DNA of 64,000 nucleotides, from NCBI GenBank assembly GCA_964016885.1, contig OZ024758.1, forward strand, positions 2,914,001 through 2,978,000. Reading direction: 5' to 3'. The notes beneath the pieces are model-generated. The model saw nothing but the letters and a program-made list of their open reading frames with translations, was not told the DNA's origin and made no database searches. How positions within the stretch are numbered: position 1 is the stretch's first letter; each line of letters starts with the position of its first letter. Position numbers and translations under genes: made by a program. Source of the DNA: Eledone cirrhosa. Lineage: Eukaryota. Below, one piece after another: positions 4,603 through 58,645 of this stretch.

Positions 4603-4614
4603 ATAACAAATGAC

Positions 4615-4802
4615 GTGTGGTAAGGAACCAGGTGGACCATAACGCACCAGAGTACTCGATATTTACGGTAGTAGAGTGGGTAATAGGAAAAGAGTCAGGA
4701 CCCCGACGGCTGAGCTCCGGCCGTTTCGACAGCTAGATCCGAAGTGTTCGGATCTAGCTGTCGAAATGGCCGGAGCTCAGCCGTTAGGGTCCTGAATCTT
4801 TT

Positions 4803-4807
<5 letters not shown>
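4615..4807. mobile_element. Fold-back element family B (half-hammerhead palindrome)
   Basis: Inverted repeat 4683-4807 centred at about 4745. The arm consensus reads GCTGTC-GAAAC-GGC..GCC-GTC-GGGGTC. The element lies between (TA)n tracts. Confidence 0.8.
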
Positions 4808-4853
<46 letters not shown>

Positions 4854-4863
4854 CAAAGGAATT

Positions 4864-5060
4864 GTGGTAAGGAACCAGATGTACTATAACGCACCAGAGT
4901 ACTCAATAGTTAGGGTAGTAGAGTGGGAAATAAGAGCAAGTATGACCCCGACGGCAGAGCTCAAGCCATTTCGACGGCTATTTCTGGACTAAATTATAAT
5001 TTAGTCCAGAAATAGCTGTCGAAACGCCTTGAGCTCTGCCGTCGGGGTCATACTTTTTCC
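4864..5060. mobile_element. Fold-back element family B, second subfamily
   Basis: Inverted repeat 4938-5055 centred at 4996/4997, with the same tail as 4615-4690. Confidence 0.8.
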
Positions 5061-14572: not shown

Positions 14573-15214
14573 GTGTGCGTGTGCGTGTGTGCGTGTGGAG
14601 AATAGGATGGCTGTAGATTGCTATTTAAATTAGGCTTAAAAATGGAATGAGAATAAGAAGAAAACAAGAACGGAGGTCTCGGATATTTAAGCGTTGAAAT
14701 ATCCGAGACTCTCAGTAGACAACAAAGTATTATACACAAATATATACATATAAACACGTCTTCCTATACATAAATATATATATAAGCACATACACACAGC
14801 GATTATTACAAACTCCAACGGATCCTATTTGAAGTGCGTTCTCATAGCATGTAAATATAATTACCATACACACACATATACAGATTGAAGAGCGACTATG
14901 CAAGGGAGTTTATTCCTATTAACAAACATAAAATAATTCAATTTTTTATTAAAAACCTTAACATGAAATTATGTTTTGAAATATTATATAAAAACAGAAT
15001 TATGCACTGATATATTAGCGAACAGTCATAAATAAGAATCCCAATAAAGCCGTCCTCTGGTCATAAACAAAGAACTATTCACATATTACCATACCTAGTG
15101 ATATATGTAAACGACCACAACCAGCGCGCGTGCGTGCGTGCGTGCGTATGTATGTATGTACGCACGCACGCACATACCTATTTGTCTGTCTGTATGCATG
15201 TATGTATGTATGTA

Positions 15215-15747
15215 TAATAATATATATATATATTTTACGTGTATATACATATTTACGTGTATATGTATATATATTTACGTGTATATATATATATATATAT
15301 TTATGTATATATATATATTTATATGTGTGTATATATATATCAATTTATGTCTGTATATATATATATATATATATTTATGTGTATATATATACATTTATGT
15401 GTGTATATATATATATACATTTATGTGAATATATATATATATATTTATTTATGAGTGTAAATACATATATATATATATATATATTTATTTTTGTGTATAT
15501 ATATATATATATTTGTATTTGTATATATATATTTGTGTATATATATATATATATATATATATTTGTATTTGTATATATTTATTTGTTTGTATATATATAT
15601 ATTTATTTGTATATATATATATATATTTATTTGTATATATATATATTTATTTGTATATATATATATATATTTATTTGTATATATATATATATATATTTGT
15701 ATATATATATATATATATATTTGTATATATATATATATATATATTTG

Positions 15748-15806
<59 letters not shown>

Positions 15807-15959
15807 CATACATAAATGTATATATATGTGAGTATATATTTATATATATATATATATTTATGTGAGTATATATATATATATATATATTTATGTGAGTATA
15901 TATATATATATATATATATTTATGTGAGTATATATATATATATATATATATTTATGTGA

Positions 15960-16015
<56 letters not shown>

Positions 16016-16081
16016 GTGAGTATATATATATATATATATATATATTTATGTGAGTATATATATATATATATATTTATGTGA

Positions 16082-16146
<65 letters not shown>

Positions 16147-26873: not shown

Positions 26874-27030
26874 GTGAAGGCGCATAGCATAGTGGTTAGA
26901 GCATTGGACTTGACATCGAAAAAGGTTGTGAGTTAAATGCTTGGACCGGGTGATATGTTGTTTCCTTGAGCAAGACTCTTTCACGTTGCTCCAGTTTACT
27001 CAGCTGTAGAAATGAGATGATAGGACTGGG
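26874..27030 (+). mobile_element. tRNA-derived CORE-type SINE (family D)
   Basis: A-box-like TAGCATAGTGG, then CCTTGAGCAAG..CACGTTGCTCCAGTTTACTCAGCTGTAGAAATGAG, which resembles the CORE domain. Confidence 0.85.
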
Positions 27031-27125: not shown

Positions 27126-27183
27126 GGGAAAAAGTATGACCCCGAAGGCAGAGCTCAAGCCGTTTCGACGGCTATTTCTGGAC
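27126..27183 (-). mobile_element. Family B single arm (3' half of hammerhead)
   Basis: Matches 4938-4990. Confidence 0.75.
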
Positions 27184-28438: not shown

Positions 28439-28656
28439 GTGAAGGCATGTGGCTGAGTAGTTAGAGAATTGGATTCGCAATCGGGAGGTTGTGAGTTCGA
28501 TTCCCGGACCGGGCGATGAGATATGTCCTTGAGCAAGGCACTTTATTTTACATTACTCCTACGTGAAGTTGCGACCGATGGATAGTATTAGCAATCGGAA
28601 AGACAAAAAAAAATATTGTTTCCTCGGTCCGATTTGACGAAAGTCGATCGACAAAT
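28439..28656 (+). mobile_element. CORE-type SINE family D with tRNA-like head
   Basis: A box TGGCTGAGTAGT, B box GAGTTCGATTCC, anticodon-loop-like TTCGCA (Arg-like), CCTTGAGCAAGGCACTT. Confidence 0.85.
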
Positions 28657-28712
28657 TTATATATATATATATCGGCTTGTATCTGCCGATATTACTTCTT
28701 GTTGTTTTAATT

Positions 28713-28750
28713 GCCCTGATGAGTCCTTAATAGGACGAAACATTGTCGGC
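28713..28750 (+). ncRNA. Intact minimal type I hammerhead ribozyme
   Basis: GCC-CTGATGA-GTCC-ttaata-GGAC-GAAAC-att-GTC-GGC. All conserved core nucleotides and three stems are present, the cleavage triplet is GUC, and AATAAA follows. Confidence 0.9.
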
Positions 28751-28795
28751 TAATAAAGACTTTTGATGTATTGAAGGCTTCTTTGTTTTACTCTC

Positions 28796-32980: not shown

Positions 32981-33855
32981 AAGAATGAACAACAAGATAC
33001 ATAGAGGGGACGTGCGGGGTGGAATTGGAAAAAATGTCTTTAGATAAAAATAACAGGTCCATTCATGTTGACATCTCTTGCAAAACTGTTGGTGGTGGCG
33101 TTTTCTGTATAATACAATGGTCATGTCGAATCGCTGCAATGAGCGAGATGCAGAGAGAGGAATATATTGAATCAAATCATAATTAACTGATCCTTTAATC
33201 TTTGTTATTACCTAAAGCCAGAACCTTTTCACCACACCCTCGTATATTAAGTATATTGGCATATATAGGGTTGACTATTAGTCCTTATCTACAAAACAAC
33301 AATAAATTACACTCGTGCTACCTATACACTACGGACCTATCAACTCTTCTCGTCTAACGTGGAAATCTCCTATCCAATTTGGGCTGAGTGAGAGATATCA
33401 TCTCTTGTGAAAATGGGTATAGCTTTCATTATGTAAAATCTCCCCATTTTGTCTCATTTCTCACCGTTTTGTGGTACACTTTCTATAGTATTCCTCGTTT
33501 GAGATTTTAGAGATTGGCATGGTTAAACTTCCAAAATTATCTTTCTTGTGAATTAACATCGATGATAATTATCTACTTTTACAAATCCTTATTAAAAGGC
33601 TTAACAGCTACATCAGAGATTCTCTTTTGGGTCATCGCCCCACCTCACGACCACGTAATCCCCTCAGAGCCCCCAACCCTATTTCCAGAGAGACCTACTT
33701 ACACGGAAAGTATAAATATTATACTATAAATAATATCGTTAATTTATATATAATAAATAATATAATATATATATATATATATATATACAATGTATAAATA
33801 AATATTATATAGTTTTCATTTTACTATATTCATATCTAATATGTACTAAGAAAAT

Positions 33856-34027
33856 GTGGTAGGAAACCAGGTGGACCATACTCGATACTTAGTTTAGTAG
33901 AGTGGGTAATAGGAAAAGAGTCAGGACCCCGACGGCTGAGCTCCGGCCGTTTCGACATCTAGATCCGAACTGTTCGGATCTAGCTGACGAAATGGCCCGA
34001 GCTCAGCCGTCGGGGTCCTGACTTTTC
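33856..34027. mobile_element. Fold-back element family B
   Basis: Inverted repeat 33913-34027 centred on 33971; same subfamily as 4615-4807. Confidence 0.85.
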
Positions 34028-34233
34028 GTATGTAATATGTATCTAGATCCTTTATACTTCACACAAATGCAATGGCTTGATAAATAAAAATGGAATCCCC
34101 ATGGACGTAGCTTTCTTCCCACCCCATTGCTTCTCATTGTGGCATTTACACATTTATAAAGCTGAAAACTTACTATAGTTACAATTTTAATAACAAATGA
34201 GAAGACCGCACATAATCTATAATACGTTAAAGA

Positions 34234-43735: not shown

Positions 43736-44113
43736 CTATCTATCTGTTGCATTTCAGTGGTATAACATCGATGTACATATACTTCTGCTATTCAAACGAA
43801 ATGTATGCCGTCTTGTGTAGTTATATCATCTATAGTTTACGAACGTTTTGGAGTGAAAACAAAAATTATCGATATGTTGAATAAGGCCACACCAGACTAT
43901 AATCTCCTGATGATTGGGATCGAATGAATGTGCAATTTCCAATCTAATATTATGGCTTTGCATAACCACCCGATTAATCAACTCGTTGCTGAAATGTTTA
44001 TTTTTGTGAGAGTGCCGTGTCTCTGGCCGGGGCTTTCAGTGGTTGTGTGTGATTGTCGTGTTATCAGCCCTTCCCAAACCAGGTTGACTTCGATATATAT
44101 ATATAACGAAGAA

Positions 44114-44283
44114 GTGTGGTAAGGAACCAGGTGGACCATAACGCACCATAGTACTCGATACAATGGGTAATGGGAAACAGTCAGGACCCCAACGGCTGAG
44201 CTCCGGCCGTTTCGACAGCTATTTCTGAACTGGCTGTCGAAACTGCCGGAGCTGAGCCGTCGGGGTCCTGAGACTTTTTCCTA
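44114..44283. mobile_element. Fold-back element family B with non-palindromic central loop
   Basis: Arms 44180-44219 and 44233-44271; the centre is GACAGC-tatttctgaactg-GCTGTC. Confidence 0.85.
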
Positions 44284-44904
44284 ATATATATATATATAGA
44301 TATATATATATATATATACACACACAAAATGCGTGTATATAAGCTAGCCAACTTGCTTAGAATGGAAGAGATAGACGTACCAGGCTGGATGTCTTGTGTA
44401 ATGTTGTTTTTTACCGTCTGGGTTCACGTCAAATATTCACATCACCGACTGTCTTTAATCACTACTACCAACTTCCTACAAAACCACCGGTTTAAATTGT
44501 CAACCTCCAGTAAAACGCACAAACATTCCATGCATCATGCTTCAAATTAGTCACGTGATCCACTGTTGGTTTTTCTCCGCTATATTTTGTAGATCTGAGG
44601 AGCAGTGTTTCGAATTCGAGTGATGACATTTGCAGCTGATGATTGACATTAAAATCTCCTTAGTAACACTATACTTATATATATATATCTTAATGCCCTT
44701 GTATTTCGGCCAAATAAGACCCCCCTCCCAAGGCCGCGGCCATGCCGGTAATAAACTATATACATGACATCCCAGATCACTCGCCGTGAAGTACAACAAG
44801 AACAACAAACTTTTGAGATTTTTTGCTTTGACTGCATTCCCATATATGGATACTACCTCTTGAGAAGCTCAACTAGATTCCTGCTGTTCTAATACTGGTG
44901 GCAT

Positions 44905-44960
44905 AGTTCGGATTTAGCTGTCGAAACGGCGGGAGCTCAGCCGTCGGCGTCCTGAATCTG

Positions 44961-44963
<3 letters not shown>
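44905..44963 (+). mobile_element. Family B single arm
   Basis: AGTTCGGATTTAGCTGTCGAAACGGCGGGAGCTCAGCCGTCGGCGTCCTGA, followed by (TA)n. Confidence 0.75.
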
Positions 44964-49731: not shown

Positions 49732-49885
49732 TAGAAGCTTCGCTGTATTTTGACTAAAGGAAATTAACTTAATAGAGGGGTTTAAAACCCTCTAAATGGA
49801 AAAGGATGGGTATTGACACATCCGTTTCCATTTAGAGGGTTTTGTCCCACACTATCAGGCTAATTTTCTTTAGCGAAAGCTTCTA
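49732..49885. repeat. Nested inverted repeat / MITE-like fold-back
   Basis: Inner 25-bp arms 49784-49808 and 49819-49843 (1 mismatch); outer TAGAAGCTT..AAGCTTCTA arms. Confidence 0.75.
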
Positions 49886-53517: not shown

Positions 53518-54606
53518 GGAAAAATTGCTTCCTTTGTCCCAGTTCACGAGATCCCCACACCCACGTGGCAAACGAATGAGGTCTGGGATCTTGTCGACCG
53601 ATCAGTGCGAGCGATAAGACCCTTAACGCAGAACACATTCCTATATGTGTGAGAAGGTCATTCTGTCTTTAGGCCGAGCTATAACCCATCTAGAGCCCTT
53701 GATATGTGAATCCAATCGTGCTCTGTTCATTCCCTACCAACAACGGTTTACTCAATTATGCATAACCAACTAAACCATTACAAACTGTTGGAATATTTTC
53801 ATAACTGAAATATCAGAGAGTATCAAAAGGTCAGAGTTAGAATGATAGAATAAAAGCAATTTCTTTGATGGTCGATAACATATAAATGACTACGTGTCGA
53901 AGTTTTCTGCACAACTAAGCTTAAACAGTACACTTGACTCTAATGGGTTAACTAAGAATATCACAAATACAAATACAAATGGTTACAACTTTTATCCATA
54001 AATGTATAAATATAAGGAAAGAACAAACAATATGGTAAATAGCTTCTATAAGTTTTAGAATATCAAAATAAACCTTGCCGAGAATCATGACATGATGGGA
54101 TATTTGAATATGTTTTTATTCAAATGCATCCTTTTGTGGAGTCCAGTCTGTGGTATAGACAAGAATTAATACATTGATTTTTTGACAAGACAAATCTATA
54201 TATTATTAAAAAGAGACAAAGCTCTGTAAGTATATACACAGACATATCTACTGGAAGCAGATATACATAAACACGGCTGTAAAAATGGACATATGAATAA
54301 TTAGACGAGCGCTATATTGTAGAATTATTTAGAAGTTACTATAATCTAGAAAATGACGACGCAAATCATGAAAGATGCATTCATAAATATATCATTCTGG
54401 CATTTCTTTAAAGTGTATTTTTAGAATTATTCATGCTTCCATCTGTTTAATATGATTACATTTTCTGCGTATTATAAATATTCACAAACGGATTTTTATA
54501 GTTTTATAGTCAAAAGTTTACATTTTCTCTATGAAGTAACTACATTCTATCACAGATGAGTTTGGGGATCACATCCACCTGTGGACTAGTTGGTCATATA
54601 CGTTCC

Positions 54607-54668
54607 AGAATGTAGATGGAGGGTTTGTGGTTTTTCTCGAAAAACCACAAAACCGCCATCTATATTCT
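54607..54668. repeat. 62-nt near-perfect hairpin
   Basis: AGAATGTAGATGGAGGGTTTGTGGTTTTTC-tc-GAAAAACCACAAAACCGCCATCTATATTCT. Confidence 0.85.
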
Positions 54669-54861
54669 ACTTTTGAAAAGCATAAGAACTGTGAAACCGG
54701 TAAAGGAAACAAATAAATATTCTTAAAAAGACTCCAGTTGCATTTTCGATTCCATCTTTTTTCCTTATATATATATATATATATATACATACATACATAC
54801 ATACATATACACACACATATATATATAGCATGTATTTCATTTTCTTATAGCATTTTAAGAG

Positions 54862-55712: not shown

Positions 55713-55929
55713 AGTTTGTTGTTGAGACACATGATTCTATCATGGCATTTTGTGGAAGGTAGGGGTAGCTGAACTTGCCAGTAGAAGAAAGAGGGAGAGG
55801 GAGTGGAGGAAAACCAGTCGAGCGTTGAAAGTGACGACTACAGCAGATTCTAAGGAAGAGGTCGAAAAAAGTATACTAGAGAGGGGAGGGAGTCGAACCG
55901 TTTCGACTTCCACCCCGTCCCCCTCTCTA

Positions 55930-56454: not shown

Positions 56455-57152
56455 TATAGTGATTGGGTATGTATCATGAAATATCTATTACACTTCATCA
56501 GACAGTAATTATCGGGTAGCACAAGATAGTTCTCGTAGGAAACGGAAGATATTTGTTCTTTAATGTAGCGCTTAGGTTGATACAGCATTTATAAGGTGTG
56601 ATTTTACATGAAATTCATATGTTTAGTTCAAGTTTTATCGGTTTAGGTTTATTTAACGCCATGATTTACTAAAACAGGAAACGGCTTCGTGTTCTATTTT
56701 CAGCTTATTTTCTGAAAATCTATATCATATCTGTAAAATATATAAATATTAAAACCTATCAATAACTATTGTGTAAATTCCTGCGTACACACACATACAA
56801 TTATATACACACTCACGCAAAAAACACACTCTCTCACGCAGACACACACAAAAACACACTCTCTCACATACACGTTCACTCACACACACACAGTTGCATA
56901 CAAACACACACAACCTCTCTATCTCACACATACACGTAGTTGCATACACACACATAAAAGCACTCACATACACACGATCTCCCTTTCCCACACGTACAAA
57001 CACACAAACACCAGATATAAATATAGTTATGATACAAATAACTATAATAAATTCACAAATACCTTTTCAACATCTAGTTCCAGAGCCTGGAACCTTACTT
57101 ATATAACCATACTATACTACCCCGAGTATCGAGTACTCTGGTGTGTAATCGA

Positions 57153-57185
57153 CTGACTAGTTTCTGACTGTGTCCATCTTCGGAG
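57153..57185 (-). ncRNA. Degenerate minimal hammerhead motif
   Basis: Minus strand CT-CCGAAGA-T-GGAC-aca-GTCA-GAAAC-ta-GTC-AG, adjacent to a family B-type tail (57107-57146). Confidence 0.5.
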
Positions 57186-58447: not shown

Positions 58448-58530
58448 AACGACACGAGTTTACAAAGATCTCTCTTTCTCATATATATATAACGAATGAA
58501 GTGTGAGCTCCAGCCGTTTCGACAGCTGGA

Positions 58531-58645
<115 letters not shown>

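Follow-up and report, generated by a model that had tools for sequence, protein, structure and literature searches.

Penelope-like elements (PLEs) offer the closest precedents for the repeats described here. Published PLE traits include inverted pLTRs and tails, insertion into (TA)n, promoters in the pLTR and hammerhead ribozymes with a U3-A8 core, the last as a reported variant of the PLE hammerhead (PMC4209133). The protein of an Anolis PLE, a predicted dimer, nicks and extends both strands, and RT starts at two internal sites flanking the tail (PMC11167929). In Craig et al. 2021, the origin of PLE tandem and inverted structures is treated as open and the function of the hammerhead as unclear (PMC8557442). 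Outside the PLEs, reverse transcription of the cap is reported to leave an extra G on full-length copies of L1 and SVA (PMC11702581, PMC2912911).

The window, by which we mean the whole 64,000-nucleotide stretch of Eledone cirrhosa DNA analyzed, holds several copies of a palindrome-forming family of this kind. The genome likely records how such elements make inverted ends and where their ribozyme cuts. It contains thousands of fossil cDNA ends, which locate to the base what is likely a capped start and what is likely the site of ribozyme cutting.

Palindromic insertions and their parent element

Positions within the element are counted from +1, the A of a YYAGTYY site that matches the initiator consensus and lies in the 3' part of hammerhead loop II, where it precedes the G of GAAA by 18 nt. 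The four palindromes and the three single arms listed in an earlier note on this DNA were all recovered in place (Table 1). The palindromes had been positioned correctly but drawn too short, as the elements begin near 4604, 4851, 33849 and 44104 and a tail of about 75 nt had been missed. The window palindromes are the heads of longer units that carry the tail on one arm. The first 30 arm loci revealed an asymmetric unit, in which one arm stops at TTTTCC by (TA)n and the other runs approximately 75 nt further before it too reaches (TA)n. With both unit ends in (TA)n, the insertion context proposed earlier stands. The palindrome at 4683-4807 folds as one hairpin of -115.9 kcal/mol (z -20.9), which 0 of 200 shuffles equal. 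A 35-mer from the arm has 1,439 exact matches in the 3.0-Gb genome (reversed control, 0) and an 18-mer from the tail occurs 45,349 times genome-wide; the palindromes are stump insertions of a Penelope-like element with tens of thousands of copies.

Table 1. Copies and fragments of the family in the window
Feature	Position	Strand	Details
Tail-bearing arm, subfamily A	4604..4745	-	starts at +1 (4745), spans the half-hammerhead and includes the whole ~75-nt tail
Tail-less arm	4746..4804	+	from +2 to the second end site TTTTCC, then (TA)n
Tail-bearing arm, subfamily B	4851..5002	-	+1 at 4990
Tail-less arm, subfamily B	4991..5060	+	+1 at 5003; terminates in (TA)n
Single tail-less arm, subfamily B	27126..27183	-	extends to +2
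Tail-bearing arm, subfamily A	33849..33971	-	extends to +1
Tail-less arm	33972..34028	+	from +2
Tail-bearing arm (44180 copy)	44104..44231	-	extends to +1
Tail-less arm (right arm of 44180 copy)	44233..44281	+	begins at +13, in the stem II 3' strand
5'-truncated parent-type copy, tail-less	44714..44963	+	3' UTR end and complete decayed hammerhead; nhmmer E 9.7e-43
Type I hammerhead	44855..44950	+	stem I 5' strand 44855-59; core TTGAGAA (U3-A8) 44860-66; stem II; +1 at 44905; GAAA 44923-26; stem III; GTC cut after 44945; stem I 3' strand 44946-50
Isolated 3' UTR fragment, same element	55733..55852	-	nhmmer E 3.9e-5
Degenerate tail fragment	57087..57169	+	nhmmer E 0.0011
Internally deleted tailed arm	58490..58534	-	begins near +7; abuts (TA)n

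Elsewhere in the window, an imperfect inverted repeat of about 115 bp at 49756-49871 is unrelated to the arm, and tRNA-like SINE-type repeats occur at 28440-28560 and 26910-27010. A long low-complexity TA/CA region at 15193-16143 is the source of most inverted-repeat hits and of spurious miRNA matches.

Longer copies lead into an ORF that encodes RT and, at its C terminus, GIY-YIG, in keeping with the Penelope-like origin suggested before. In one (L024), some 850 bp upstream of the arm lead into a GIY-YIG-like frame. The oldest long copies of subfamily A extend only into the RT, and full length was obtained from subfamily C; a younger subfamily yielded partial tandems and arrays. Among four 10-kb stretches, three (L461, L462 and L464) contain whole open ORFs of 717-719 aa from ATG, and one is without any ORF above 600 aa. 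The unit of approximately 3.5 kb (about 3.53-3.55 kb) is made up of the ORF, a long 3' UTR, the full hammerhead and the tail, followed by the next ATG at +232. The three stretches with open ORFs (L461 is G000:C1:91474000-91483999) are head-to-tail arrays of near-identical units, in which the frame is also open for about 67 codons upstream of the ATG. A selenoprotein reading of TGA stops was dropped, as the intact ORFs require no recoding.

Pfam and PDB sequence searches with the ORF returned zero hits, and its neighbors in the Atlas carry GIY-YIG and RVT_1. Read by eye, the protein has the motifs RWR, DKT and YRDD, a CxCX5C linker and a C-terminal YIG, CxxC and CxH; in P0002 these appear as RLRWR, SDKTG, CNCPDRSIC, CNLC and CKH, with the RWK of the clade replaced by RWR. 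As in EN+ PLEs, a single ORF holds RT and GIY-YIG, and partial tandems forming pLTRs, an inverted 5' copy and an optional tail are present (L291, L461-L464). A C-terminal EN, the motif set and (TA)n insertion are shared with the Hydra clade, while its general length of less than 3 kb and canonical hammerhead core are not, both being descriptive of the clade rather than criteria for it. As judged by its protein motifs and the published clade description, the source is a Hydra-type Penelope-like retrotransposon. The Naiad clade is ruled out by the C-terminal position of the EN.

Hammerhead, probable start site and probable cut site

The earlier note had read the arm as the 3' half of a hammerhead, and this is correct. 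It had also predicted a parent with a complete ribozyme, of which the stem I 5' strand ACCCC was found, but the core is UUGANAA with a U3-A8 pair rather than CUGANGA; no fitting literal CTGANGA lies upstream of the arm among 24 long copies. The view that the 5' half is absent from every copy is true only of that literal motif, as 44714-44963 holds a full hammerhead. The arm at 44905, taken for a half-ribozyme, belongs to this truncated copy of about 250 bp.

In the long copies the motif runs through ACCCC, UUGANAA, a G-C pair and an 8-bp stem II with a long loop to GAAA, a 5-bp stem III, GUC and GGGGU. The 3-8 pair, GAAA, NUH and three stems that define a type I hammerhead are all there. At most stem positions, pairing is kept in 67-76 of the 76 distinct full copies, but at the seventh pair of the 8-bp stem II helix in just 35. 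One stem II pair covaries (G-C in 44, A-U in 29), core position 7 is variable, and seven copies have a C3-A8 mismatch. Constrained to the hammerhead fold, three copies lie 0.8-2.4 kcal/mol above the MFE and two others 8-10 kcal/mol above it. Rfam gave no hammerhead hit on L291, nor on the 44.9-kb copy among the rows listed. Self-cleavage by the full motif is predicted and likely, and an excess of copies starting at +42 gives it indirect support. Members of the subfamily with C3 and A8 (L165, L330 and others) may have a weakened ribozyme and offer a natural comparison for short:long ratios.

Other hammerheads were noted in passing. A canonical minimal type I motif at 28710-28754 (Rfam Hammerhead_1, 31.7 bits, E 0.0006, below the gathering score) sits in a TA-flanked fragment, probably of another PLE family, and the flanks of L008 and L026 contain, by eye, standard CTGATGA-core hammerheads of other families. 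The family was also considered as a non-LTR retrozyme, built of tandem non-coding units that each have a complete hammerhead. This was rejected, since the short copies are inverted and without the 5' core, and the tandem units carry an ORF or a half-ribozyme; a retrozyme preprint (10.64898/2026.07.22.740005) deals, in its available text, with tandem complete motifs.

Arm starts cluster at or near +1. A profile run over 400 kb of unselected sequence gave 21 hits, 12 of which share one model position as their start, no more than a few bases from +1; in the window this is true of 10 out of 13 hits. A set of 73 arms, picked solely by a tail 18-mer and drawn from 70 loci among the first 100 listed, divides into 33 with starts at -4..+10, 3 at -40..-5, 15 at +11..+40, 5 at +41..+44, 10 further 3' and 7 beyond -40; these counts retain four misplaced entries, namely L151 and L232 (both through indels), L212 (which is a long copy but was called at -19) and L171's partner. 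The partner arms behave alike, with 27 of the 40 parsed beginning at -4..+10. In subfamily C, 22,904 genome matches cover +1..+16 and 4,088 of them also have the C-type -8..-1, a figure with other parent variants outside it. In subfamily A, 3,249 matches cover +1..+18 versus 297 that cover the 5' core. Short copies outnumber long ones by approximately 9:1, the long ones making up about 10%. Contigs of two runs of unrecorded kind have a depth step near +1 on L291, which is set aside here because such depth is no measure of copy number.

The palindrome axis does lie in loop II, as had been proposed, but it is a strong peak rather than a fixed point. Starts also occur in stem III and at the cut site, some arms begin hundreds of bases upstream, and even within the peak most lie at -4..+10 instead of precisely at +1, with some extending to -5 to -13. 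The proposal that the junctions arose independently stands, because they vary between otherwise identical copies. The same +1 restart is found at tandem, non-inverted junctions (L313, L315, L318 and L339). Mini-tandems (L313-L318, L336 and L339) run from +1 to the 5' UTR or ORF start, which suggests further internal RT start sites and repeated template jumps.

What precedes +1 differs between copy classes. Long copies have T at -1 in 74 cases, C in 5 and G in none (n=79), while short arms have 45 T, 23 C, 15 G and 1 A (n=84). Where a purine stands at -1, hand counts on the first 100 matches of each list give a G:A ratio of 84:16 for subfamily C (out of 4,606 matches) and of 75:25 for subfamily A (out of 778). 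Of the inspected Gs, 20 of 22 in subfamily A and 15 of 24 in subfamily C are without a script match to the partner arm; the other 9 of the 24 can be read from it, and so, by eye, can a few more in tail-only partners. There are 614 palindromes joined at +1, and of the first 50 at least one extra G is present in 35 and one on both arms in 13. Where there is a single central C:G pair, its C may have been templated by a parent of the TCAGT type, to which 5 of 79 long copies belong. Taken together with the initiator match, the extra G makes +1 a likely capped Pol II start in the upstream pLTR, inside ribozyme loop II.

A second, smaller peak falls at the predicted ribozyme cut. Starts at +42, just after GUC and with two non-parental bases before, number 595 versus 65 at +39 and 152 at +46; per allowed dinucleotide this is 99, 11 and 17, an excess of about 6-9-fold. 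Of 215 palindromes joined at the cut site, the first 50 include 17 with A/T alone between the arms and 22 without a spacer, the latter equally compatible with CG microhomology at +41/+42. A jump onto a +42 start also occurs at a tandem junction (L329). The peak is a likely, if indirect, sign of ribozyme cutting in vivo followed by reverse transcription of the 3' product. For the Anolis PLE, zero RNA reads begin at the cut site and ribozyme activity is dispensable in vitro (PMC11167929).

A second family in the window allows comparison. At 54590-54765 lies another palindrome-headed, (TA)n-ending unit with two 3' end sites, and 20 of 30 loci, picked by a query starting near +9, begin at -1..+9 of CCAGATG, two with an extra G. 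This site is located about 40 nt upstream of a minimal hammerhead-like motif that by eye has a U3-A8-type core, and the family has a weak link to a PLE ORF (tblastn E 3e-4 and 6e-4). The displacement suggests that the axis follows the start site and not the ribozyme.

Formation of the inverted arms

The palindromes are probably explained by two primings, run-off and joining of cDNAs from a capped RNA. Two cDNAs would be primed separately, one per nicked strand of the (TA)n target; each would be extended to the 5' end of the element RNA, which is likely capped, and run off it, and the two would then be joined head to head. We infer that the message starts in the upstream pLTR at +1, so that it would contain just the 3' half of that ribozyme and retain its cap, while the downstream ribozyme copy would be complete and hence cut. 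Two fixed 3' end sites occur, at about +61 and about +135, and RT priming at these two cap-nearest sites would give arms of approximately 61 and 135 nt. Priming at the downstream sites on uncut read-through RNA would yield the long copies, and the cut 3' product would yield the +42 class. Joining would probably proceed by RT template jumping or end joining, adding 0-4 bases, often A.

The junctions bear on this directly. The tail is present in 0 of 40 partner arms, and the tail-less arm reaches at least 3 nt further 5' in 18 of 40 pairs, the tailed arm being further in 6; in L032, L033 and L045 the tail-less arm outreaches its tailed partner by about 1 kb. Of 100 palindromes with a G at both ends, the first 50 include 2 without a spacer and 32 with a single A or T. 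The greater reach of tail-less arms, the absence of tailed partners, the short spacers and the nicking of both strands by the Anolis protein favor two primings. Haplotypes agree between arms in 30 of 32 pairs, versus 62% expected at random, with L289 and L219 discordant, and both cDNAs thus usually stem from one RNA or one source, although self-copying predicts likewise. The intact young tandem copies make the two-priming model directly testable.

A variant compatible with separate priming, which we regard as possible but rather doubtful, is that the templates are mostly transcripts of earlier short copies, which would propagate themselves in a SINE-like manner. The short copies are the great majority and contain +1 and both priming sites, as this would require. 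The common arm haplotypes are also found in long ORF-bearing copies (L165, L180 and L222), however, and the mini-tandems L313-L318 include the 5' UTR and ORF start.

The earlier note attributed the palindromes to a single cDNA that snaps back at the stem-loop II hairpin or palindrome and copies itself. The agreement of arm haplotypes fits this as well, -4..+10 is nearly self-complementary in TCAGT-type parents, and self-priming at junction palindromes has been proposed for rotifer PLEs (PMC3846280). Some junctions do lie on local palindromes: 4991-5002 is a self-complementary 12-mer of loop II common to both subfamily B arms, an exception that fits annealing or fold-back, and with the recurrent junction of L220, L231 and L240 it may have involved either process. 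As a general cause, snap-back is largely refuted and now unlikely. It demands that the tail-less arm never be further 5', which the 18 of 40 pairs and the kilobase-long cases violate, and spacers of 0-1 base in 34 of the first 50 doubly G-ended palindromes also count against it. It leaves the extra G unexplained, and the arms of L289 belong to two recurrent haplotypes. Nor is it supported as what sets the axis, as the ends fall on a single initiator-like base and carry an extra G, the same starts recur at non-inverted junctions, and the axis of the second window family is displaced from its hammerhead-like motif.

It is very unlikely that +1 instead marks where the RT stalls or where a nuclease cuts loop II, with G added by terminal transferase activity. 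The site does sit in structured RNA, and untemplated A/T runs after +1 exist (L175 and L347). The extra G, however, is rare at the ribozyme-cut end, where it is found in 4 of the first 50 palindromes, and at the control start +4, where G:A is 25:75 (p 1.7e-17 versus subfamily C and 1.5e-12 versus subfamily A); furthermore, YYAGTYY is conserved across subfamilies that otherwise differ in loop II. Least credible of all is that the palindrome is itself mobile, as a MITE or from a few palindromic master copies, for despite its high copy number, inverted repeats and few recurrent junctions, the junctions vary among otherwise identical copies, the ends are asymmetric and the sequence is continuous with an RT-EN ORF, so that the TIR MITE with a transposase partner raised in the earlier note is not what was found.

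Implications and comparison with known systems

The junction data argue for two-strand priming on one RNA over self-priming. If the start does lie in loop II, this would explain how a strong ribozyme can be kept in a terminal repeat without decapping the message. A wider reading, tentative but tenable, is that, with the promoter start inside the ribozyme, one sequence would occur twice in the message, disarmed as a half-ribozyme under the 5' cap and active near the other end, and that the hammerhead would limit productive transposition. Cleavage would remove the downstream RT priming sites, and the remaining cap-proximal pair would give mostly abortive palindromes. As a by-product, dsRNA hairpins would arise by the tens of thousands, nearly perfect and perhaps self-transcribing, and these might enter A-to-I editing or small-RNA pathways. 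For octopus, hyper-editing and an unusually high dsRNA potential of the genome have been reported (PMC5625713), and the family is a candidate source of dsRNA potential and hyper-editing of this type. In a literature search of sources other than subscription papers and bioRxiv supplements, we did not find a start inside a PLE hammerhead, a cap-derived G at PLE inversion junctions or a cut-site insertion class.

With published PLE insertions that have inverted pLTRs (PMC3846280, PMC11167929), the family shares the head-to-head inverted, 5'-truncated copy, the tail at one end and two RT start sites. Its tail is longer, at about 75 nt versus 30-40, and its junction, unlike that of the published insertions, is tied to a likely start site that bears a cap-like G. 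The junction account in PMC3846280, namely self-priming, possibly on antisense RNA, does not fit the counts obtained here. L1 twin priming (PMC2912911, PMC11702581) is alike in priming on both strands and in the extra G at the capped end; as reported there, L1 mostly inverts non-overlapping segments, whereas here both cDNAs would copy one segment and so create an inverted duplication. D. virilis Penelope also has an internal promoter and start in the upstream pLTR, but its start is reported about 120 nt before the hammerhead (PMC2377424, PMC4209133) rather than inside loop II, a distance that the two sources combined resolve into 46 nt and a 75-nt intron ending at helix I.

The hammerheads of the Schistosoma Cercyon PLEs (PMC4209133) resemble this one in the U3-A8 pair, long stem II, 5-bp stem I and pLTR location. 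They are described as minimal, whereas stem III is complete here, the monomer is predicted to be functional and many copies are without the 5' half. The protein agrees with that of Hydra-clade PLEs as described (PMC8557442) in the C-terminal GIY-YIG, RW(R), DKT, CxCX5C linker, CxxC and CxH, and (TA)n targeting and a 3' hammerhead are likewise shared, although that clade is generally below 3 kb in the same source and the present family has 3.5-kb units with a 3' UTR of more than 1 kb. Hydra-1_Obim has N-terminal ORF motifs that are similar by eye, and the published listing gives its core as CTGAAGA and its loop II as 8 nt (PMC8557442); the present family has a U3-A8 core, a long stem-loop II and a 5-bp stem III, and because the hammerheads differ it is a different family.
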